Positions 2,721 through 40,630 of a DNA stretch of 64,000 nucleotides are shown piece after piece. Each line of letters begins with the position of its first letter. Within the stretch, counting starts at the first letter, position 1. The position numbers and the translations under genes are program-made. The DNA comes from Oscillospiraceae bacterium (GTDB lineage: Bacteria; Bacillota; Clostridia; UBA1381; UBA9506): positions 35,746 to 99,745 of the forward strand of contig SVJQ01000005.1 of NCBI GenBank assembly GCA_015068905.1, read 5' to 3'. The notes under the pieces were generated by a model. The model searched no databases and was not told the origin of the DNA. It saw only the letters and a list, made by a program, of their open reading frames with translations.

Positions 2721-3376
2721 TTTTCTTCCTCCTTGTTCTGTCTGAAGACCGCTTCGCAACGGTAAATGGGCTGATCTTGCTCAGAAAACAGCTTTTCATA
2801 CTCGGTCATCACGTTGTCTGAATAGTCTGAATTATGCAGGTCAAAGGTAATGTTTTTAAGCTTCATATCATAATCTGCAAAAGAGTTAAGAGAGAACTCG
2901 AACAGGTTTTTGTTGTCAGTTTTAAAATGGATTTCTCCGTTTTTGCAGAGCAGCTTTTCCCAAAGCATTAAATGCTGTTCGTGTGTGAGTCTTCGCCGCC
3001 GATAGCTGTTTTTATGCCACGGGTCACAGAAATTTATGTAAATGACCTCGCATTTTGTTTCTGTTTCAATGTCCCGCAATAGATTTGCATCACCATGCAG
3101 AAATTTTACGTTAGAAAGACCGGCATTCTGTATCTTTTCAGCCGCTAAAATTAAAACGTTCGAGTTTTTTTCAACGGCAAGAAAGTTGATTTCAGGGTGT
3201 TTTTTGGCAGTCTCTAAAATAAAGCCGCCTTTGCCGCAGCCAACTTCCATCCGTAAGGGGTTATCGTTTGGAAAAATGCGTTTTATATCGCCGTCTAATT
3301 CCTTGATATCAGTCAGAATAATATCTGAGCAAACATCCATTCTTTCTTTTAAATGCTTTTTTCTTCTCATCCGCAT
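2717..3376 (-). CDS. trmB: tRNA (guanine-N7)-methyltransferase
   Basis: MEVGCGKGGF SAM motif, DPWHK, and overall TrmB length and order. Confidence 0.9.
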   Translation of the reverse strand: MRMRRKKHLKERMDVCSDIILTDIKELDGDIKRIFPNDNPLRMEVGCGKGGFILETAKKHPEINFLAVEKNSNVLILAAEKIQNAGLSNVKFLHGDANLLRDIETETKCEVIYINFCDPWHKNSYRRRRLTHEQHLMLWEKLLCKNGEIHFKTDNKNLFEFSLNSFADYDMKLKNITFDLHNSDYSDNVMTEYEKLFSEQDQPIYRCEAVFRQNKEEEK

Positions 3377-3408
3377 TTTTTGAGAATCTCCTTTAACGTA
3401 ATGCCAAT

Positions 3409-3437
3409 ATTATACTATAAACCTATGTAAATATCAA
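3409..3437 (-). promoter_or_regulatory. sigma-A type promoter for trmB
   Basis: On the minus strand: TTGATA, 17 nt, TATAAT. Confidence 0.45.
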
Positions 3438-3440
3438 TAG

Positions 3441-3596: not shown

Positions 3597-4218
3597 TTTA
3601 GGATGAGACTATAAAGACTGTCGAATGTTGTCGAAATCAAAAAAGCATCCCTTGCAAAGCCCTCCTTGCCTAAAGGAGGGGGGACCGTCGTAGACGGTGG
3701 GAGGATTCAGGAGGGATACATGGAGAGAAAACATAATACAGAATTAACAAATAACGCAAGAACGTTGAGAAAGAATATGACAAGAGAGGAACGACATCTT
3801 TGGTATGATTTCTTGAAAAGGTATCCTATTAGATTTTTACGACAAAAAGTAATTGATAATTATATTGTTGATTTTTATTGTCATAGTGCGAGGTTGATAA
3901 TTGAGCTTGATGGCTCACAACATTACGAAGAAAAAGGATTACTGAAAGACAAAATCAGAACTGAAAGAATAGAACAACGAAATCTAACAATTATTCGAAT
4001 ACCTAACAATGAGGTTAACAGAAATTTTGAGGGAGTTTGTCAATATATTGATATTGCAGTAAAAGAATCCCTCCGTCAGCCTGCGGCTGACACCTCCCAT
4101 GAATCCCCCAGTCAACTTCGTTGACAGCCCCCTTTAGGCAAGGGGGCCGATGGCAAGGGTGGCTTTGATGCTTGGCATCTAGATTATACAGTCTTTATAT
4201 AAAGATTTCATCAAATAG
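3597..4218 (+). mobile_element. TIR-bounded cassette carrying a DUF559 endonuclease gene (putative mobile/selfish element)
   Basis: The left arm 3597-3716 aligns by eye with the reverse complement of the right arm 4067-4218. The arms are GC-rich hairpin arrays embedded in AT-rich intergenic DNA. Confidence 0.5.
3720..4124 (+). CDS. DUF559 domain (Vsr-like fold) endonuclease
   Basis: RKNMTREERHLWY...FLRQKVIDNYIVDFYC...IELDGSQH...D..R is typical of DUF559. ATG at 3720 is preceded by GGAGGG. The C-terminal tail is encoded by the right repeat arm. Confidence 0.85.
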   Translation: MERKHNTELTNNARTLRKNMTREERHLWYDFLKRYPIRFLRQKVIDNYIVDFYCHSARLIIELDGSQHYEEKGLLKDKIRTERIEQRNLTIIRIPNNEVNRNFEGVCQYIDIAVKESLRQPAADTSHESPSQLR

Positions 4219-4970: not shown

Positions 4971-5028
4971 CAGAGTTTTTCTGCTTGATGTGCGTGAGAA
5001 AAATGATATTCTCCGCCGGCGAAAATTG

Positions 5029-5057
5029 TTGACTTTTGTATGCTGATATGTTATAAT
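5029..5057 (+). promoter_or_regulatory. sigma-A type promoter for xpt
   Basis: TTGACT, 17 nt, TATAAT. Confidence 0.6.
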
Positions 5058-10800: not shown

Positions 10801-10928
10801 AAAAGTGAATTATCTAATTGATAAATTGTTTGGTGTTGCCCTATATAATTTTTTGTTTTGTCTTGGCAAGAGTTCAGTAAGATGTTTGACATTTCATGAG
10901 CGAACTGAAATATAAAAGAGGTGAAAGT

Positions 10929-11237
10929 ATGTCAGATGTATTTAGTGTGATTGCAATAGCATTATTTTTTCTGTGTTGGCTTTTGATTATTAAAAAGTTC
11001 GTTTTAAGCAGGTGTACAACCATTCAAACCGTTAAGGCAAAAATTGTGGATAAGTACAAACCGGAGATGGTTTCAAAATATCCCGGAATATTTAAACAAG
11101 AAAGATACATAGTTGTATTTGAGACAAAGGATAAAAAACTTTCATTTACTGTCTCAGATTTTTCGTATGGAAACTATAAAGTTGGTGAAAAAGGAACTTT
11201 GAAGTACAAAGGGAGTAAACTTATAAGTTTCAAGTAA
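10929..11237 (+). CDS. DUF2500-like small membrane-anchored protein
   Basis: N-terminal TM followed by a beta-rich domain. GAGGTGAAAG RBS before the ATG at 10929. Confidence 0.55.
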   Translation: MSDVFSVIAIALFFLCWLLIIKKFVLSRCTTIQTVKAKIVDKYKPEMVSKYPGIFKQERYIVVFETKDKKLSFTVSDFSYGNYKVGEKGTLKYKGSKLISFK

Positions 11238-11272
11238 TTTTTATCCTGAGTTGACGCGAGTAACATGGATAT

Positions 11273-11450
11273 GACGAAAGTTGTCGAAAACAAAAGCCTC
11301 CCCTGTGTAAGGGGAGGTGGGTTACAAAGCAACTCGGAGGGGTTGTAAAAAAAGCTAAACAATCCCCCAGTCTGCTTCGCAGACAGCCCCCTTTAGGCAA
11401 GGGGGCCTTTGAAAGGTTGCATCTAAACCTTATGTGTCGCAATCAAAAGA
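11273..11450. repeat. ORF-less miniature (MITE-like) copy of the DUF559 cassette ends
   Basis: 11361-11407 matches 4102-4148 at 43 of 47 positions. 11280-11297 resembles 3627-3646. No DUF559 coding sequence lies between the ends. Confidence 0.55.
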
Positions 11451-11498
11451 CAATATTTTCTATCAATCCCTTTATTATAAACTGAAAGGATGTTTTTA

Positions 11499-12029
11499 AT
11501 GAATTTTAAAGAACTTGCCCTAAAGCGTGAAAGCTGTCGTGATTATGACGGCAGACCGGTAGCTCATGAGCTGCTGGCGGATATTATGGAAACAGCTTGC
11601 TTGTCACCATCAGCCTGCAATTCTCAGCCCTGGAAGCTGGTTGCAGCAGAGGGTGAAAAGGCAACAGAAATTCGCCCGCTTGTGCAGGAATGCGGACGGA
11701 ATAAGTTTGCAGTAAATGTGCCTGCTTTTGTAGCAATTTGTGAAACTGAGGCAAGGCTGATGCCGGGCGTGAATGAAAACAATCAGCACTTTGCTCAGAT
11801 GGATGTGGGTATGGTGACCATGATGCTGACCTTGGCGGCTGCAGATAGAGGACTTTCTACCTGTATTTTAGGTTGTTTTAATGAAGAGGCAATTAAAGAT
11901 GTACTGAGTATTCCTGAAAACGTATCGGTGCGTCTTGTTGTGGCTGTGGGATACGGTAAAACTGATGAACCCCGAAAGAAAGTCAGAAAAGAAGCTGACG
12001 CTGTCCGCAGCTTTAACCGGTGGCAATAA
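11499..12029 (+). CDS. nitroreductase family protein
   Basis: RESCRDY...SPSACNSQPW motif typical of the nitroreductase fold. Confidence 0.8.
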   Translation: MNFKELALKRESCRDYDGRPVAHELLADIMETACLSPSACNSQPWKLVAAEGEKATEIRPLVQECGRNKFAVNVPAFVAICETEARLMPGVNENNQHFAQMDVGMVTMMLTLAAADRGLSTCILGCFNEEAIKDVLSIPENVSVRLVVAVGYGKTDEPRKKVRKEADAVRSFNRWQ

Positions 12030-19537: not shown

Positions 19538-20899
19538 ATGTTAGAAAAAGTTAAAAAAACGATTTTAGAACATAAACTTATTACGCAAGGCGACAAGGTG
19601 CTGGTTGCCCTTTCGGGTGGGGCAGACTCTGTTTGTTTGCTTGTATGTTTACTTGCCCTTGCAGACGCTTTAAACCTGTCTGTTTCAGCTGCACATGTGA
19701 ATCACGGCCTGCGTGGACAGGATGCTGACCGTGATGAAGAATTTGTCCGCTCCTTGTGCGATGAACGGGGTGTGCCATTGTATGTACATAGGGCAGACGT
19801 GTCACAGGTTGCCAAGGAAAGAAAAGTAGGTCTTGAAGAAGCCGGCCGTTATGTGCGCTATAGTTTTTTTGATGATTTGATGAAAGAGCATGGCTTTGAT
19901 AAGATTGCCACAGCTCATCACGCAGGGGATGCTATTGAAACGGTGCTGATGCGACTGATGCGTGGAACAGGGATTTTGGGTCTTGCCGGCATTCCGTATC
20001 AGAACGGTGCTGTTATCCGTCCGCTTCTGGACACAACAAGGCAAGAGATTGAAGCCTTTTTAGAGAAACAAAATCTTTCCTACCGGACAGATTTATCAAA
20101 TTATGAAACAAACTTTACCCGCAATCGGGTGAGACACGAACTAATCCCGCTGATTGAGGAAAAGTTTAATCCGGGGTTTGCCCGCTCTTTTCAGGAGCAG
20201 ATAGGGTTGTATGCCGACTGCAGTGCATATATACAAGAAGAGGCAGAAAAACTTTTTGTACGCACGGCAACTTTTGTGCCGGGGGGCTATGGTTTTGCGT
20301 GTCAAAAGCTTTTGAATGAAAATGAGTTTGTAGTCAGCACAATGCTACACCTGAAGGCAACAAAAGTTACCGGAGGGGAGGTTTCTGGTCAGCATATTCG
20401 CAGGGTAATGGACATTTTAAAAGCGCAATCCGGAGCGGTAACTTTGCCCAAAGAGGGGCTGGCAGAGGTGTGTCACGGTGTCTTGTATATTCGTAACGAC
20501 ATAAGTGTAAAGGCGTTTGCCTATACATTTGAAACTAAGGTTTTCATCCCTGAGGCGGATTGTTATATTACAGTCAAAGAAAAGGCAGAAAAGCCTCAAA
20601 AACGCGGTAGAAACGTAGCTTGCCTTGATGCGGAAAAGCTGAAAGGTAAGAAACTGATGGTTAGAAATCGTGCCGCAGGGGATGCTTTTTATCCTACCGG
20701 TATGGAGGGTAAAAAGAAGCTGCAGGATTTTTTTGTTGACCAAAAGGTACCATATTTTATGCGGGACAGGATTCCGATTTTGACCGCAGATGATGAGATT
20801 GTCTGGATTGCAGGCTATCGCCCTGACAGACGTTTTGCAGCAACAGACGAAACAAGCGCAGTTATCTGCGTAGAGATACATAAGGGGGAGCAATTGTGA
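19538..20899 (+). CDS. tilS: tRNA(Ile)-lysidine synthase
   Basis: PP-loop VALSGGADS. Conserved tilS-hpt-ftsH order. The start (ATG at 19538 or GTG at 19529) is uncertain. Confidence 0.9.
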   Translation: MLEKVKKTILEHKLITQGDKVLVALSGGADSVCLLVCLLALADALNLSVSAAHVNHGLRGQDADRDEEFVRSLCDERGVPLYVHRADVSQVAKERKVGLEEAGRYVRYSFFDDLMKEHGFDKIATAHHAGDAIETVLMRLMRGTGILGLAGIPYQNGAVIRPLLDTTRQEIEAFLEKQNLSYRTDLSNYETNFTRNRVRHELIPLIEEKFNPGFARSFQEQIGLYADCSAYIQEEAEKLFVRTATFVPGGYGFACQKLLNENEFVVSTMLHLKATKVTGGEVSGQHIRRVMDILKAQSGAVTLPKEGLAEVCHGVLYIRNDISVKAFAYTFETKVFIPEADCYITVKEKAEKPQKRGRNVACLDAEKLKGKKLMVRNRAAGDAFYPTGMEGKKKLQDFFVDQKVPYFMRDRIPILTADDEIVWIAGYRPDRRFAATDETSAVICVEIHKGEQL

Positions 20900-21444
20900 A
20901 ACATTTAGAAGAAAACATTGAAAGAGTTTTACTGACTAAAGAGGAAATTGCAGCAAAAGTTTGCGAAGTTGCAGAAGAAATGGGAGACTTTTACAAGGGT
21001 CAGGAAGTCGTTATGGTTTGCATCTTAAAGGGTAGTGTAACCTTTTTTGCTGACCTTGCAAGAGAAATTCCCTTTCCTGCAGTGTTTGACTTTATGTGCG
21101 TTTCAAGCTACGGCAGCGGTTCTGTTTCAGGCGGCAGTGTTCGCATTTTAAAGGATTTGACAGTTGATATTACTGACAAGCATGTTGTGATTGTTGAAGA
21201 TATTTTAGACACAGGCAACACCCTTTCTGCCTTGTTTGAACAGTTAAAGGCAAGAAAGCCTGCTTCTTTGAAACTGTGCTGTCTGTTGGATAAGCCCGAC
21301 CGTCGGACAAAGCCCATTAGTGCTGACTTTTTGGGTTTTACTATTCCCGATGAGTTTGTTGTGGGTTATGGCCTTGACTACAATGAAGCATACAGACAAC
21401 TGCCTTATGTAGGCATTTTAAAGCGTAGTGTGTATGAAAAATAA
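20896..21444 (+). CDS. hpt: hypoxanthine phosphoribosyltransferase
   Basis: VVIVEDILDTGNTL PRPP motif. GTG start after GGGGGAG, overlapping the tilS stop. Confidence 0.9.
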   Translation: MKHLEENIERVLLTKEEIAAKVCEVAEEMGDFYKGQEVVMVCILKGSVTFFADLAREIPFPAVFDFMCVSSYGSGSVSGGSVRILKDLTVDITDKHVVIVEDILDTGNTLSALFEQLKARKPASLKLCCLLDKPDRRTKPISADFLGFTIPDEFVVGYGLDYNEAYRQLPYVGILKRSVYEK

Positions 21445-21558
21445 GTGAATTTCAAATAAAAAATGAATAGAAAGTAAAGTTTTTTGATATTCCTTGTAAT
21501 TTATCTTGTTTTGTGTTAAACTAAATTCTATTCTAAAAGTCCATAAGGAGTGACAGAC

Positions 21559-23463
21559 TTGAAAAAAAAGCATCTGGGCGGCATAGGGTTTTATATTTTG
21601 CTGTTCTTAATTGTTTTACTTATGTTCGGCATTTTTAATTATGAACCGGGCATAAAAAGTATTCCGTATTCTGAATTGCTTTCTAATATTCAAAAGGGCA
21701 AGGTGTCAGAGCTGATTCTGACAGACCGTACGGCAACCATTACGCTTTCCGGTGTTGAGATGAAGCGCCCCAATGACGATAAACGTGTTTCTGATATTGC
21801 CTCCATATATATTCTGTATGAGGATGCAGGCGACGCCATTCGTGAGCAAATGAACGCAGGTAAACTGAAGGTAGAAACGCCGGCACCGCAGGAAATGCCA
21901 TGGTGGCTTTCGCTGTTGCCTACGCTACTCACGGTAGGTATTTTTGTTCTGTTTTGGTTTGTGTTTATGCGCCAGTCACAGGGTGGCGGCAAGGTGATGT
22001 CTTTTGGCAAAAGTAATGCAAAGGTGAACCAGAACGGAGACACACAGGTAACTTTTCAGGATGTTGCCGGTGCTGACGAGGAAAAGGCTGAACTCGAAGA
22101 AATTGTAGACTTTTTAAGAGATTCATCCAAGTTTATTGAGCTTGGTGCCAGAATCCCTAAGGGCGTTTTGTTAGTGGGCCCTCCGGGTACCGGTAAAACT
22201 CTGCTTGCAAAAGCCGTTGCAGGAGAGGCAAAGGTGCCGTTTTTCAGCATCAGCGGCTCTGACTTTGTGGAAATGTTTGTGGGCGTGGGTGCATCCCGTG
22301 TGAGAGACTTATTTGAAAAAGCCAAAAAGAATGCCCCCAGCATTATCTTTATTGATGAAATTGATGCTGTTGGCCGTCACAGAGGTGCAGGTCTTGGCGG
22401 TGGCCACGATGAACGTGAGCAGACCTTAAACCAGCTTTTGGTTGAGATGGACGGCTTTGGCGTTAATGAAGGTATTATTATCATTGCAGCGACCAACCGC
22501 CCGGATATTCTGGACCCGGCGCTTCTGCGTCCCGGTCGTTTTGACCGCCAGGTTGTTGTTAATTATCCTGATGTAAAGGGCAGAGAAGCGGTGCTTAAGG
22601 TGCATTGCCGTAAAAAGCCTTTGGCTAGTGATGTTGACCTTTCTGTTATTGCGAAAACCACATCCGGCTTTACCGGTGCGGACCTTGAAAACCTGATGAA
22701 TGAAGCGGCACTGCTTGCAGCTAAGCAGGGCAAGAAGAAAATTGAGATGGCAGATATTGAGAATTCTATCATCAAAGTCATTGCTGGACCGGAAAAACGG
22801 TCTAAATCCGTTACGGATAAGGAAAAGAGACTGGTTGCCTATCACGAGGCAGGTCATGCCATTACTCATAAGCTGATGCCTGATTGTGACCCTGTTCACG
22901 AAATTTCCATTATTCAGCGCGGTCGCGCAGGAGGTTATACGCTGTCCCTTCCTTCGGAAGACAGAAACTATATTTCCAAACAGCATATGTTGGATGAACT
23001 TGTGACCCTGCTTGGTGGTCGTACAGCTGAAAAAATTGTACTGGGTGATATCAGCACAGGCGCCTCTAACGACATTATGCGCTCTACTAAAATTGCCCGT
23101 GATATGGTTATGAAATATGGTATGAGTGATGTCTTAGGGCCTATGACCTTTGGTTCTGATAACGATGAAGTGTTCCTTGGCAGAAGCTATAGTCAGAACC
23201 GTGATTACAGCGAACAGGTTGCATCAGAAATTGATCAGGAAGTCAGACGGATTATTGATGAGGCATATAAGCGTTGTGAAGCCATGCTGACAGAGCACAG
23301 AGAACAGCTTGACCGTGTTGCTGAGGCTTTAATTGAGAAAGAAAAGCTTTCCGGCGAAGAATTTGAAGCAATTTTTGCCGGCAAAGCTGAGGATACTCCC
23401 GAAGTAGTAGAAGAGGCTGCATCAGAGGCGGAAACAGATGTACCGGAAGCACCGGTAAAATAA
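21559..23463 (+). CDS. ftsH: ATP-dependent zinc metalloprotease FtsH
   Basis: Two TMs, AAA+ Walker [12 protein letters not shown], and HEAGH zinc site. TTG at 21559 lies 8 nt after AAGGAG (the GTG at 21550 overlaps the RBS). Confidence 0.95.
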
Positions 23464-32376: not shown

Positions 32377-32463
32377 GGAGAGGTGTCCGAGCGGTTTAAG
32401 GAGCTGGTCTTGAAAACCAGTGATGCGAGAGCACCGTGAGTTCGAATCTCACCCTCTCCGCCA
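32377..32463 (+). tRNA. tRNA-Ser (anticodon UGA), CCA encoded
   Basis: Hand-folded cloverleaf: acceptor GGAGAGG/CCTCTCC, anticodon stem CTGGT/ACCAG with loop CTTGAAA, long variable arm, T-arm GTGAG-TTCGAAT-CTCAC. Confidence 0.9.
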
Positions 32464-32500: not shown

Positions 32501-32592
32501 GGAGAAGTACTCAAGTTGGCCGAAGAGGCGCCCCTGCTAAGGGTGTAGGTCGGGAAACCGGCGCGAGAGTTCAAATCTCTCCTTCTCCGCCA
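32501..32592 (+). tRNA. tRNA-Ser (anticodon GCU), CCA encoded
   Basis: Acceptor GGAGAAG/CTTCTCC, anticodon loop CTGCTAA, long variable arm, T-arm GAGAG-TTCAAAT-CTCTC. Confidence 0.9.
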
Positions 32593-38631: not shown

Positions 38632-39642
38632 TTAATTTTGATGAAATTGATTGACTGAGGTTTTCAGTCGCAGGTCCTCACCGATAAACTGCAGAGCCTG
38701 ATAACTGCCCATAATACGGCTGATAACACGCTCAGAGTAGCGGTCGGAAAGTTCCTGCATATTTAAGTTTGTGTTGATAATTGTCTTTTTGTTGGTAATC
38801 AAACGGGAGTTTAAAATATCAAACAAAGCGGCATTTGTATAGGCTGTAGAAAATTCTGCGCCTAAATCATCTAAAATTAAAAGGTCACAGTCATAAAGAC
38901 GCTCAGCCTGACTTTTTAATTCAGCTAAATCAGTGCCCCGTTTAAATTTATAGTCTTCCAATAAAGAAACAATCTGATACGTGGTTTCATAAATAACAGA
39001 AAAACCCTTTTTAATCAGTTCTTTTGCAATGCAGGTTGATAAAAAGGTTTTTCCAAGACCCGACTCGCCCCAGAACAACAGATTTTTCTCAGTACGTTCA
39101 AAGGAGTTGATAAAATCCTTGCTGATTTCTACAATACGTTCCATATTCACACGGGGAATAATGCCGTATTGTGCATCGGGTTCATTAGAGTAGAGGGAGA
39201 AGTCAAAGGTTTTAAAGCTTTGATTGCGAAGCTGTTGTGAAAGGTTAGACTTTTCAAAAGCCTTCATCACCAACCGGCGTTTAAAACATTCGCAGGATCT
39301 GTCACCCCGTACACCGGTATCCTGACAATCTTCACACATATAGCGCATAGAAAGCTCATCTTCAGCAAAGCCGTTTTCCAGCAAAAGAGCCTTTCTGCGG
39401 ATTTGTAAGGATTTTTGATGGTCACGAAGTGCTACAATTTTAGCCTGCATATCCAAGGGGGCTGAAACCGCTAATGAAACGATAGAAAGACCGGCAGACT
39501 GTATCTCACGGTCAATGTCTTCAATTTCAGGAACAGCAAGGTAAACCGCGCGGCGGCGAGCATCTAAATCCTCCTGATTATGCCTGCGGAGCTCTTCATA
39601 TTCAGTTTCAACTAATTGATACAAACTGCGCTCATACGCCAT
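38632..39642 (-). CDS. DnaI/DnaC-like helicase-loader ATPase (IstB-like AAA+)
   Basis: Cys-rich N-domain (CEDCQDTG...CECF), Walker A GESGLGKTFL, Walker B LLILDDLG. GGGAGGGA RBS before the ATG at 39642. Confidence 0.8.
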   Translation of the reverse strand: MAYERSLYQLVETEYEELRRHNQEDLDARRRAVYLAVPEIEDIDREIQSAGLSIVSLAVSAPLDMQAKIVALRDHQKSLQIRRKALLLENGFAEDELSMRYMCEDCQDTGVRGDRSCECFKRRLVMKAFEKSNLSQQLRNQSFKTFDFSLYSNEPDAQYGIIPRVNMERIVEISKDFINSFERTEKNLLFWGESGLGKTFLSTCIAKELIKKGFSVIYETTYQIVSLLEDYKFKRGTDLAELKSQAERLYDCDLLILDDLGAEFSTAYTNAALFDILNSRLITNKKTIINTNLNMQELSDRYSERVISRIMGSYQALQFIGEDLRLKTSVNQFHQN

Positions 39643-40630
39643 GTTTTTCGTCCCTCCCATCAGGGAAATTAACCGCCTCTAAGGCCTGACGCTGCAAAGC
39701 CTCAAAATCATAGCGGGAATTTTTCGGTTTCTTGCTGTCGGGTTTAGTTTGTTTATTTACATCCTGCGGAGCGTGAATGTTATTCTTTGCCCAGGATTCT
39801 AAAATCTTGTTCATATAGGCAAAAGAGAGTTTGCCGGTTTGATTTACAGTTAACTCGTATGCAGCCTTCACCATATCAGGAGACATGTTAAATTCGCTTT
39901 GCCAGTTGTGAATGTAACTGAGTTCACGAGTTGTTAAACGACGCTCCTGAATACCTAAAACGGTACGAATACGGCTGGTGTAGCTTAAAAATTCTTCCCG
40001 TTTTTCAATGTGAGCCTTAGCCTTTTCGATCGAATCAATACCGGCAGAAGCCCATTTGCCGGCTTCTTTTTCGATATATTTCATAGAGTGTTTGCCCTTT
40101 GATACATAGTATTCAATTAATACCAAAATGACCTCAACAGGCAAGCCATAATAATCGTGAAAAGAATATAAAAGCTCAGTATCAGCAGAACTTAAGGTTT
40201 TACCAAGGATTTGCCCGACCAGTTTATACATCTGGCTCATACGAGGATTTTCCTGCAGACGACGGCTGATTTCAGAAGCTTTGTAGCTGGGCTTAAAGGG
40301 TACAGCAGTTTTTTCGCAGGCAGCGGAAAAGCAAAATTCAATATCAAAGTCACCATCATCCACGGTGGTGAAGTTATGAATTTTGACAAGCCCCTGAGAA
40401 CTGTAAAACAAAAAGGCATTTACAACATCCATTTTGCTGATTTTGAGTGCCTCAGCAATATAGTCATTTGAAATATTCAGGTTGCCTTTTTCACATTGCC
40501 GTAAAGTGAAAATATATACGGATAAATATGTAGCACAACCGGCTTCAGTCAAAAGATCTGCAACACGGGCAGGGAGAGTCATATAACCGCTGGGACTGCC
40601 GGGAGCTTTAGATTCAATAATCATGACCAA
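39632..40630 (-). CDS. DnaD-domain replication initiation/restart protein
   Basis: DnaD-like repeat region (LYSFHDYYGLPVEVILVLIEY...; NWQSEFNMSPDMV). Paired with the loader ATPase. The start is uncertain (TTG at 40630 or ATG at 40624). Confidence 0.7.
   Translation of the reverse strand: MVMIIESKAPGSPSGYMTLPARVADLLTEAGCATYLSVYIFTLRQCEKGNLNISNDYIAEALKISKMDVVNAFLFYSSQGLVKIHNFTTVDDGDFDIEFCFSAACEKTAVPFKPSYKASEISRRLQENPRMSQMYKLVGQILGKTLSSADTELLYSFHDYYGLPVEVILVLIEYYVSKGKHSMKYIEKEAGKWASAGIDSIEKAKAHIEKREEFLSYTSRIRTVLGIQERRLTTRELSYIHNWQSEFNMSPDMVKAAYELTVNQTGKLSFAYMNKILESWAKNNIHAPQDVNKQTKPDSKKPKNSRYDFEALQRQALEAVNFPDGRDEKHGV

Follow-up and report, generated by a model that had tools for sequence, protein, structure and literature searches.

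A doublet of hairpin-bearing triplex-design repeats in an Oscillospiraceae genome and its relation to DUF559 nuclease genes

The stretch of Oscillospiraceae bacterium DNA analysed here (GenBank assembly GCA_015068905.1, contig SVJQ01000005.1, positions 35,746 to 99,745) is 64,000 nucleotides long; it is called the window below, and positions are counted from its first letter. Two places in it share a hairpin-rich sequence. One is the end of a cassette that carries a gene of the DUF559 nuclease family (3619-4205). The other, at 11264-11414, lies between a DUF2500 gene (10896-11237) and a nitroreductase gene (11490-12029), which are co-directional and were both identified with Pfam, and its ends enclose no DUF559 coding sequence. 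The original prediction took this second place for a miniature, lacking an open reading frame (ORF), of the DUF559 cassette ends, similar to a MITE (a transposable element of the miniature inverted-repeat class) and conserved in structure rather than in sequence. What is this element, and what connects it with DUF559? We find that the element at 11264-11414 is an ordinary doublet, seen as an insertion polymorphism; its repeats are a variant, with an added hairpin, of the intrastrand-triplex repeats already known, and it is no private miniature of the DUF559 cassette.

The similarity that raises the question is exact. An alignment of 47 nt (11361-11407 with 4102-4148; labelled family D11) contains four differences (91% identity), and these are two compensatory pairs that turn the stem GTCAAC/GTTGAC into GTCTGC/GCAGAC around an unchanged TTC loop, as had been claimed; by our own arithmetic, the chance of two further differences hitting pairing partners with complementary bases is ~1e-4. 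The window has only two full copies of the 47-mer. The core CCCCCTTTAGGCAAGGGGG, with up to three mismatches, occurs three times where 0.01 occurrences are expected, including a minus-strand CCTCC/GGAGG variant at 3661-3679. The left ends also resemble one another, with TGACGAAAGTTGTCGAAA (11272-11289) matching TGTCGAATGTTGTCGAAA (3619-3636); this motif has two matches in the window (0.07 expected) and no others. The mini element and its parts are as follows.

11264-11414, no strand assigned: the mini element (L motif plus head-to-head module doublet), present in the window and missing from a sister strain in the alignment with locus L329
11272-11297, plus strand: L motif TGACGAAAGTTGTCGAAAACAAAAGC, direct repeats of TGTCGnAA, the outer left part; found elsewhere in the window only at 3619-3636, and near elements in L106 and L140
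11295-11344, minus strand: left module, B-like, with a decayed variable hairpin (covariance model 23.0 bits, E 1.3e-4); read on the plus strand, pyrimidine arm CCTCCCC 11297-11303, loop TGTGTAA 11304-11310, purine arm GGGGAGG 11311-11317, an 18-nt linker and third strand GGAGGGG 11336-11342
11345-11360, no strand assigned: 16-nt spacer between the two module heads, corresponding to the position of the DUF559 ORF in the big copy
11361-11408, plus strand: right module, A-type (covariance model 76.6 bits), with head ATCCCCC 11362-11368, variable hairpin GTCTGC-TTC-GCAGAC 11370-11384 and hairpin 2 G-CCCCCTT-TAGGC-AAGGGGG-C 11386-11406
11415-11450, plus strand: P motif GGTTGCATCTAAACCTTATGTGTCGCAAT and, overlapping with it, a second L-like repeat GTGTCGCAATCAAAAGAC; the segment belongs to the flank and not to the insert, and L329 retains it in its empty site

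Two inverted modules, their heads facing each other across 16 nt, make up the mini copy. Modules identical or nearly identical to the right one occur in the loci L074, L106 and L020 (loci outside the window are cited by such numbers), and the L106 equivalent of the left module has an intact hairpin.

Searched with a covariance model made from 17 copies of the family, the window yields four significant modules plus a half-module below threshold, and 775,569 bases of related loci yield 193 matches. An exact 19-mer occurs 27 times in IMG/VR viral contigs. A scan for CCNCCTTTAGGCAAGGNGG in one genome per species gave at least 120 loci; among the matches listed, nearly all are metagenome-assembled genomes (MAGs) of gut or rumen Clostridia (Oscillospiraceae, Acutalibacteraceae, Ruminococcaceae and Faecousia), and many lie at contig ends, as one expects of a repeat at which assemblies break. 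The module is the 48-nt unit of a large family of repeats carried by Oscillospirales of the gut and rumen and by their phages. In its common architecture (A/T)ATCCCCC is followed after 1 nt by a hairpin whose sequence and length are free and, after another 2 nt, by CCCCCTT-TAGGC-AAGGGGG, so that head, variable hairpin, pyrimidine arm, loop and purine arm come in this order. Chance, or a local duplication without wider meaning, might account for the similarity and its four compensating differences as long as only the two full 47-mers of the window are considered. With hundreds of copies elsewhere that have the same architecture and systematic compensation, and with 0.01 chance matches expected, this explanation is already refuted and we give it practically no credence.

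The compensation was assessed on 146 distinct modules. Their variable hairpins have 128 distinct sequences, 4-34 nt in length. Standard pairs fill 93.6% of cells compared with 75.3% in shuffles, and double-sided changes are present in 11 of the 14 pairs (361 cells), among them all six pairs of the variable hairpin. The covariation score is 0.416 against 0.111 in shuffles, none of 500 of which reaches it, and slid partners score at most 0.048; one-sided changes number 0-1 per pair. For the variable hairpin, the claim that structure is conserved over sequence is upheld well beyond the two copies on which it was made. What did not survive is the idea of a mutation and its compensation inside this genome. 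The stem GTCTGC is also found in L074, L106 and L020, and GTCAAC in L138; since both stems already occur in other genomes, the window copies are distinct members of the family.

The structural reading was also incomplete, as it overlooked the box at the 5' end. This head is a mirror repeat of the arm of hairpin 2, the design of intrastrand triplexes known from the BoxC repeats of Escherichia coli. The head and arms vary together, as seen in the sequence types.

Head ATCCCCCA, pyrimidine arm GCCCCCTT, purine arm AAGGGGGC
Head ATCCCCCC, pyrimidine arm CCCCCCTT, purine arm AAGGGGGG
Head ATCCCTCC, pyrimidine arm CCTCCCTT, purine arm AAGGGAGG
Head ATCCTCCC, pyrimidine arm CCCTCCTT, purine arm AAGGAGGG
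Head ATCCCCCT, pyrimidine arm TCCCCCTT, purine arm AAGGGGGA
Head ATCCCTCA, pyrimidine arm GCTCCCTT, purine arm AAGGGAGC

The head/purine-arm pairs ATCCCTCC/AAGGGAGG, ATCCTCCC/AAGGAGGG, ATCCCCCT/AAGGGGGA and ATCCCCCC/AAGGGGGG all follow the parallel-register rule. The mutual information between a head position and the same position of the purine arm is 0.45, 0.60 and 1.13 bits (positions 5, 6 and 8), with off-diagonal values of at most 0.14, and the rule 'T over A, C over G' holds for 85.6% of positions in register 0 compared with 49-69% in shifted registers. The mutual-information matrix and the register scan reject both a head that is a direct repeat of the hairpin arm and an antiparallel pairing of the head with the purine arm. 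On the C-rich strand the design is that of a pyrimidine-motif triplex. The G-rich strand has the order pyrimidine arm, loop, purine arm, variable hairpin and then GGGGGAT or GGAGGGAT, and all of its positions fit the purine motif (G.G-C, A.A-T, T.A-T). A strict detector of this design finds the four modules in the 64 kb and nothing else. It matches the left module of the mini copy at 11297 with 7/7 mirror positions despite the loss of most of the variable hairpin, and this decayed arm is still a perfect triad (CCTCCCC, GGGGAGG, GGAGGGG). Judged from its sequence, the block parallel-complementary to the hairpin purine arm is an intramolecular triple-helix design, and the three-way covariation is natural evidence for selection on the triplex design itself. 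The loop from the purine arm to the third strand comprises the variable hairpin and 2-4 further nt, in all 16-18 nt in the window and at most ~35 nt in other loci; as this exceeds the 1-6 nt of the ITxF definition, the module is a variant and not a textbook intrastrand triplex motif.

The BoxC repeat, or TMECO (CCCTCNCCC-N3-6-GGGNGAGGG-N3-GGGNGAGGG), belongs to class II and folds in vitro into a purine-motif triplex (PMC4666352; Holder et al. 2015). Its 23 copies in strain MG1655 are all intergenic and without strand bias, five inverted pairs each combine a type A with a type B, and BoxC loci are more rearranged between strains than controls are (PMC4666352). Near such motifs, the same authors write, 'We never found ... 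remnants of transposases or integrases' (PMC4666352).

Could the conserved helices instead belong to an RNA? The element, co-transcribed with the flanking genes, would then be a small RNA or would stabilise, attenuate or terminate an mRNA, and what the compensation preserves would be RNA helices. It does lie between two co-directional genes, a 252-nt region folds with -80.2 kcal/mol (z -4.65 compared with shuffles), many phage copies are directly upstream of a ribosome-binding site (RBS) and ATG, and repetitive extragenic palindromes (REPs) are known to stabilise mRNAs (PMC3733652). However, the opposite strand folds equally well (z -4.58), and the modules are unbiased in orientation relative to genes (upstream gene on the same strand in 47 cases and the opposite in 36; downstream gene, 49 and 48). 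Structured RNAs usually tolerate G-U pairs, and the modules, with G-T in 3 of 1992 cells and next to no one-sided changes, are unlike real RNA families. In Rfam 15 no family was found for 11230-11495, the best sub-threshold E value being >4 in a permissive search to E 10; the only matches at gathering score in the window are two tRNAs. Module copies also stand in frame within coding genes, and the best-fitting triplex, the purine motif on the G-rich strand, is impossible in RNA (PMC4666352). A terminator role was tried and rejected: the sense strand has no T-run terminator, and the only terminator-like site is on the minus strand, in the left module of the mini copy. As G-T pairs are nearly absent, orientation is unbiased, both strands fold alike and Rfam has no match, an element acting at the DNA level is more likely than an RNA, which we consider quite improbable.

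We next consider how the modules are arranged. More than 90% of the copies are solo or in ORF-less doublets, including those in phage contigs and gene interiors. Among pairs, 34 are head-to-head, with spacers of 0-61 nt, compared with 9, 5 and 3 in the other orientations. The head-to-head doublets are heterotypic, combining an A-type TGGGGGAT with a B-type ATCCCTCC in the polarity reverse-complemented B and then A. The mini copy does have the two end modules in this polarity, which is that of the cassette, but the module is not specific to DUF559 cassettes. No ORF remnants were seen in the doublet spacers, and the outer flanks of the 34 doublets contain no direct repeat that could be a target-site duplication; the ends read roughly A/AGGCC...GGCCT/T, where the slash marks the boundary.

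The comparison with a sister strain shows the element as an insertion. In L329 (GCA_045546115.1), whose nitroreductase is 99% identical, the DUF2500 stop is followed by the same left flank, the 14 nt TTCTTCTTATAATC, the P motif and then the nitroreductase gene. This strain is without the ~150 nt equal to 11264-11414 (the L motif and the doublet), while both flanks are kept; this is therefore an insertion/deletion polymorphism. No modules were found in L329-L332. More distant relatives have other upstream genes and spacers of 6-42 nt, and synteny therefore breaks exactly here. The equivalent of 11262-11446 in L106 is 77% identical and stands in another gene context, with the left module intact. 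The presence/absence polymorphism and this second context are in line with the original prediction, but without a target-site duplication or a transposase the element is not a classical MITE. Exact-protein look-ups with the nitroreductase and the phosphoribosyltransferase of the window returned no recorded match, and a metagenome scan with the nitroreductase gave a single marine match, 34% identical.

Instability extends to the interior of the modules. In strains with an identical DUF559 protein, we observe whole module alleles replaced, extra repeats and, where the two hairpins adjoin, both a breakpoint and an IS30-like insertion. In L150 (~700-1050; strains of one species) an IS30-like transposase gene stands exactly between hairpin 2 and the variable hairpin, and at L143 (~3427) a contig diverges exactly at GACAG/CCCCC. 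Breakage seems to favour the point where the two hairpins meet. Phage terminase genes gave no readable insertion boundary, as the site is hypervariable and in relatives 93% identical a segment has been exchanged, with no clean indel.

Copies within genes form a subject of their own. In-frame modules were observed at L013 3584-3625, L018 956-997, L015 11930-12106, L047 7594-7637 and L010 1318-1361, in genes for phage large terminases, EutA and an unannotated 794-aa ORF of the phage contig L010, with the common frame ...IPQS..APFRQGG. In the terminases and in EutA the modules stand in loops that vary strongly among relatives, and at the terminase loops related phages carry different repeat-derived insertions. 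Tandem arrays in which the module alternates with a 16-nt spacer TGAGAGGAACAATGGAA have a period of 63 nt (L136 38-212, 3311-3548 and 4447-4560; L036 2685-2796; L023 1-104); the period equals 21 codons, the arrays are open throughout, and every unit has an RBS-like GAGAGGAA and an ATG. A protein-coding repeat (this frame and the 21-codon arrays) was nevertheless rejected as the primary constraint, because the stems change by complementary pairs that alter the peptide. A doublet subfamily with a 34-36 nt spacer contains two extra small hairpins (L026 1162-1486 and 3329-3463; L042 1624-1766; L057 4047-4196; L096 782-944), whose stems differ by complementary changes, for example CTGTCGC-TTT-GCGACAG followed by ATCGCCC-GAC-GGGCGAT.

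We turn to the second half of the question, the connection with DUF559. The cassette in the window and the motifs around it comprise the following.

3619-3646, plus strand: L motif of the DUF559 cassette, matching the 11272 region
3658-3707, minus strand: upstream module, B-type (covariance model 51.3 bits); read on the plus strand, pyrimidine arm CCCTCCTT 3660-3667, loop, purine arm AAGGAGGG 3673-3680, hairpin ACCGTC-GTA-GACGGT 3684-3698 (the third stem sequence that had been pointed out) and third strand GGGAGGAT 3699-3706
3720-4124, plus strand: DUF559 gene (Vsr-like PD-(D/E)XK; Pfam PF04480, E 2e-28, 98.7 bits against a cut-off of 20.6), its start being given as 3666 or 3720
4066-4095, plus strand: half-module ATCCCTCC-GTCAGC-CTGC-GGCTGAC-ACCTCC, which encodes the DUF559 C-terminal tail (11.7 bits, E 0.2, sub-threshold)
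4102-4149, plus strand: downstream module, A-type, with hairpin GTCAAC-TTC-GTTGAC (covariance model 74.5 bits)
4173-4205, plus strand: P motif after the cassette, 97% identical to L106 5009-5041
4356-4385: a further P copy, upstream of a phosphoribosyltransferase gene

The upstream module carries a T/A variant at the same register in the head and both arms. The DUF559 protein matches PDB entry 3HRL (E 3.2e-10) and, at E 0.12, 3R3P, and has the core VDF...IIELDGSQH in its sequence; its gene ends, with the TGA at 4122-4124, within the downstream module's variable hairpin. The half-module unit recurs in L120, L137, L102, L001 and Novosphingobium. More than 8000 homologues of the protein were found, the best 120 of which are 84-94% identical. 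Most of these closest 120 are on contigs of 0.5-2 kb, about the size of the cassette, which suggests that metagenome assemblies routinely break at the flanking modules.

The pairing of gene and modules is regular. In all Clostridial DUF559 genes examined (window, L138, L080, L128, L068, L032, L140, L142 and L144; 54-100% identical and in different gene contexts), an inverted module ends 5-20 nt before the start codon and a direct module lies at or overlaps the stop. Only three head-to-head gaps are gene-sized (387, 394 and 400 nt), and all three hold DUF559. Other genes in such gaps were considered: one long gap (L043) holds an ordinary ribose-phosphate pyrophosphokinase-like gene, and long gaps are therefore not informative. 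A dead tandem second cassette was observed at L140 3440-3600, where the DUF559 cassette is followed by P, L, a decayed upstream module and a remnant of the DUF559 N-terminus (KLTDNAKALRK).

The association reaches beyond the Clostridia. Motifs of triplex design flank DUF559 in Firmicutes, Proteobacteria (alpha, beta and gamma), Deinococcota and Cyanobacteria, counted as six phyla, with unrelated module sequences. In Neisseria and Kingella, DUF559 lies between carA and carB among TC-rich modules such as TGCCCTCTCTC-TAA-CTCTCTCCC-AC-GGGAGAGAG, in which 9/9 mirror positions agree. The N. meningitidis carA-carB spacer (L304 640-2200) is a long and variable region of ~275-nt composite units, each a head-to-head TC-rich pair of triplex design with a 64-nt spacer plus hairpins containing DUS, and DUF559 follows one module by 20 nt. 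Twelve PLSDB loci inspected by eye (two from Deinococcus and one each from Synechocystis, Pseudanabaena, Picosynechococcus, Sphingomonas, Novosphingobium, Shinella, Sinorhizobium, Azospirillum, Photobacterium and E. coli) all have motifs within ~100 nt of DUF559. With the strict detector, 14 loci from non-Clostridial phyla contain 25 motifs within 300 nt of the ORF compared with 0.33 in dinucleotide shuffles (maximum 2), a ~75-fold enrichment with 13 of the 14 loci positive. The modules abut or overlap the DUF559 start and stop codons and in Deinococcus form perfect 50-bp inverted repeats; Sinorhizobium, Shinella and Novosphingobium have hairpin-in-loop versions similar to the Clostridial module. 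Motifs were also counted in the 40-kb neighbourhoods of DUF559 (64 kb for the window).

Sinorhizobium: 5 motifs in the neighbourhood, 2 next to DUF559
Shinella: 3 motifs, 2 next to DUF559
Azospirillum: 4 motifs, 1 next to DUF559
Novosphingobium: 6 motifs, 3 next to DUF559
Photobacterium: 25 motifs, with an array of 15 starting right after DUF559
This window: 4 motifs, 2 next to DUF559; the other 2 are the mini copy

In Photobacterium sp. GJ3 (L327) the array of 15 and a second array of 10, 18 kb away, occupy 20355-21903 and 38788-39888. In E. coli MG1655, TMECO no. 9 (1,351,204-1,351,239) is 170 nt downstream of ycjD, a DUF559 gene, and a degenerate motif overlaps the ycjD 3' end; from 18 loci in 4.64 Mb we calculate a chance of ~0.002 of a BoxC locus in a given 400-nt interval. 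Two published results are relevant here. 'DUF559 domain-containing protein' is 14-fold enriched among predicted programmed-inversion targets, which are genes flanked by inverted repeats (PMC9881135), and a Caulobacter DUF559 protein causes SOS-inducing DNA damage (PMC12907096), so that the family includes active nucleases. The literature searched contains no link of DUF559 to repeats, mobile elements or REPs, and DUF559 is not mentioned in PMC4666352.

Taken together, the design, the linkage and the polymorphism suggest a non-autonomous, recombinogenic triplex-hairpin repeat, for which DUF559 is likely to be a structure-specific nuclease partner; we regard this reading as evenly poised between right and wrong. 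The module would fold when DNA is transiently single-stranded in replication, repair or transcription, forming a Watson-Crick hairpin and a purine-motif triple helix whose connecting loop holds the second small hairpin, free in its sequence. A DUF559 nuclease acting in trans would recognize the folded module and nick it, and mending the nick from another copy, through gene conversion or a copy-paste that makes no target duplication, would spread, replace and delete modules, doublets and the DUF559 cassette. The mini copy would be the non-autonomous form and the cassette 3619-4205 the enzyme-carrying form; the two have both ends and their polarity in common, and DUF559 is no known transposase. 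Three observations agree with this mechanism: the repeats occur in phages, where a host enzyme could act in trans; whole alleles are replaced between strains; and BoxC loci are unstable. A wider version, in which DUF559 proteins are the missing enzyme partners of intrastrand-triplex repeats throughout Bacteria, a PD-(D/E)XK counterpart of the RAYT-REPIN system, is in our view possible but doubtful.

Several points weigh against the nuclease-partner reading. The three-way covariation comes from a handful of independent sequence types, and the covariation counts are for that reason inflated by relatedness. In the other phyla, a detector with 7-nt arms separates mirror from direct repeats in C/G-rich tracts only weakly (25 compared with 19). 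In E. coli, in vivo DMS footprinting gave no support for a stable triplex in double-stranded DNA (PMC4666352). Clean insertion boundaries, or a target rule, are not definable beyond the single empty site, and a given DUF559 protein is found at one fixed locus per species, so that the gene is not visibly jumping. The only studied DUF559 protein, Caulobacter VsrA, has been interpreted as a T:G mismatch repair enzyme (PMC12907096). That DUF559 binds or cuts the modules, and that the Clostridial modules fold into a triplex, is what we infer.

There are other explanations of the linkage. DUF559 may be an ordinary Vsr-like nuclease for T:G mismatches after 5-methylcytosine deamination, with repeats that are incidental or regulatory, piling up in variable intergenic regions or serving as terminators, insulators or SOS-linked elements; the mini copy would then be a REP-like repeat without a partner. 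VsrA is functionally tied to a cytosine methyltransferase and is SOS-induced (PMC12907096), TM/BoxC loci are hypervariable and would for that reason collect rearrangements, the left hairpin of the mini copy has its minus-strand terminator score, and the authors of the BoxC study found no mobility genes (PMC4666352). Against this, the association recurs in six phyla with unrelated module sequences, the modules touch start and stop codons and form perfect 50-bp inverted repeats in Deinococcus, the motifs exceed shuffles ~75-fold and concentrate at DUF559 within 40-kb neighbourhoods, and earlier work, as cited in PMC4666352, found BoxC to have no promoter or terminator activity. We consider this explanation unlikely.

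The modules could also be a landing pad, with DUF559 as a selfish homing endonuclease that cuts ORF-less doublets in their spacer and is copied in by repair, while the doublets would arise and spread by some other route, for instance through a different enzyme or recombination by the host. In that case the mini copy would be an empty homing site and no derivative. The ORF does lie exactly at the position of the doublet spacer, in the same A/B polarity, ORF-less doublets outnumber occupied ones in the sample (34 compared with 3), and their spacers are free of ORF remnants. DUF559 proteins 84-94% identical stand in different gene contexts across species, and a Vsr-fold homing endonuclease exists in I-Bth0305I (PDB 3R3P), to which the sequence match is weak (E 0.12). 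Homing leaves unexplained, however, how modules arrived in phage genes and at thousands of sites. With a length of about 50 nt and differences from copy to copy, the arms offer poor homology for homing, and the tandem dead cassette of L140 and the single-module flanks of Kingella and E. coli do not suit simple site occupancy. We consider homing unlikely, if slightly less so than the incidental association. The wider version of the nuclease-partner reading, if true, would explain how triplex repeats spread without a transposase and why their loci are rearrangement hot spots. It would also account for the scattered occurrence of DUF559 genes, for the inverted repeats on either side of them and for their enrichment among predicted inversion targets.

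The L and P motifs accompany the elements. In L, TGTCGnAA stands in 2-3 direct repeats; P, promoter-like in appearance, reads T(G/T)GCATCYARAYYWTAYR and then TATAAAG. P-like motifs occur in the window only at 4173, 4356 and 11417, and P flanks elements in L106, L138 and L140. P followed by L without modules was observed in L106. Outside the window the two motifs were noted at L106 ~3200-3440 and 5009-5041 and at L140 3450-3500. P as an ordinary promoter of many genes was rejected because P and L adjoin only two elements in 64 kb. Elsewhere in the window, tRNA genes at 32377-32460 and 32501-32589 are followed, in a region extending to 33114, by ~224-nt tandem repeats, each of which duplicates the tRNA 3' end (CAAATCTCTCCTTCTCCGCCA) and includes a terminator-like hairpin.

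BoxC/TM repeats occur in hundreds of bacterial genomes, where they mark unstable loci, and their origin, spread and function have been questioned since the 1990s. DUF559 is a very widespread nuclease family for which the literature searched gives a proposed role, in T:G mismatch repair, for one member only. The linkage of repeat and enzyme across six phyla turns these questions into one testable hypothesis. Recognizing the modules also has practical value when gut microbiomes are annotated, because they fragment metagenome assemblies, give rise to spurious ORFs and peptide tails and enter phage and host genes in frame. The triplex design itself was known; new here are the hairpin-in-triplex-loop variant, the natural three-way covariation and the cross-phylum association with DUF559.

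Among known systems, the module aligns best in design with BoxC/TMECO (Hoyne et al. 2000; PMC4666352). Both have a pyrimidine arm, a purine arm and a mirror purine third strand (class II, the complementary strand being class III), and both are G/C-rich and intergenic without strand bias, form inverted pairs of two subtypes, occupy strain-variable loci and have no transposase nearby. The largest difference is the variable, covarying hairpin of 15-35 nt in the second loop of the Clostridial module, compared with ITxF loops of 1-6 nt; the Clostridial module also has a conserved 5-nt loop, TAGGC, and copies in genes and phages. REP, BIME and REPIN-RAYT systems likewise comprise short, high-copy palindromes with compensated stems, a preference for head-to-head doublets, no target-site duplication, a single-copy enzyme gene between two inverted repeats and a mostly vertical persistence. 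In contrast to REPs and REPINs, the Clostridial head is ATCC(C/T)(C/T)CC, the module alignment contains no GTAG or CGTC tag, GTC...GAC is paired and not free, the halves of a doublet fold separately and not onto each other, and a triplex-forming block is added. The bracketed gene is a DUF559 (PF04480) PD-(D/E)XK nuclease, unlike the HUH tyrosine transposase RAYT; this comparison covers the bracketed gene.

The CGTC-tagged REPs, among them the Rickettsia palindromic elements (RPE) and Neisseria dRS3 (PMC3733652), resemble the modules in being mostly head-to-head heterodimers, in having in-frame copies in protein genes and in that they 'lack a dedicated transposase'. The Clostridial sequence is different, it has no unpaired CGTC tag, and its triplex block is undescribed for CGTC-tagged REPs; in Neisseria, the DUF559 neighbourhood (carA-carB) contains TC-rich mirror-repeat modules instead of dRS3. 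MITEs are similarly small and ORF-less, with inverted ends, many dispersed copies and presence/absence polymorphism. They differ in their target-site duplications and in having a related insertion sequence with a DDE or other transposase, neither of which was seen here, and single modules and tandem arrays are as common as doublets. The ends of IS200/IS605 elements and their palindrome-associated derivatives share subterminal hairpins, distinct left and right ends and the lack of target duplication, and act on single-stranded DNA, as the modules would; the modules come with no TnpA or TnpB gene and no identifiable conserved cleavage tetranucleotide. Finally, the gene at 3720-4124 is a clear DUF559 member of the Vsr/DUF559 nucleases, a group that includes I-Bth0305I; the known members act on T:G mismatches or intron homing sites and none has been tied to repeats or triplex DNA.

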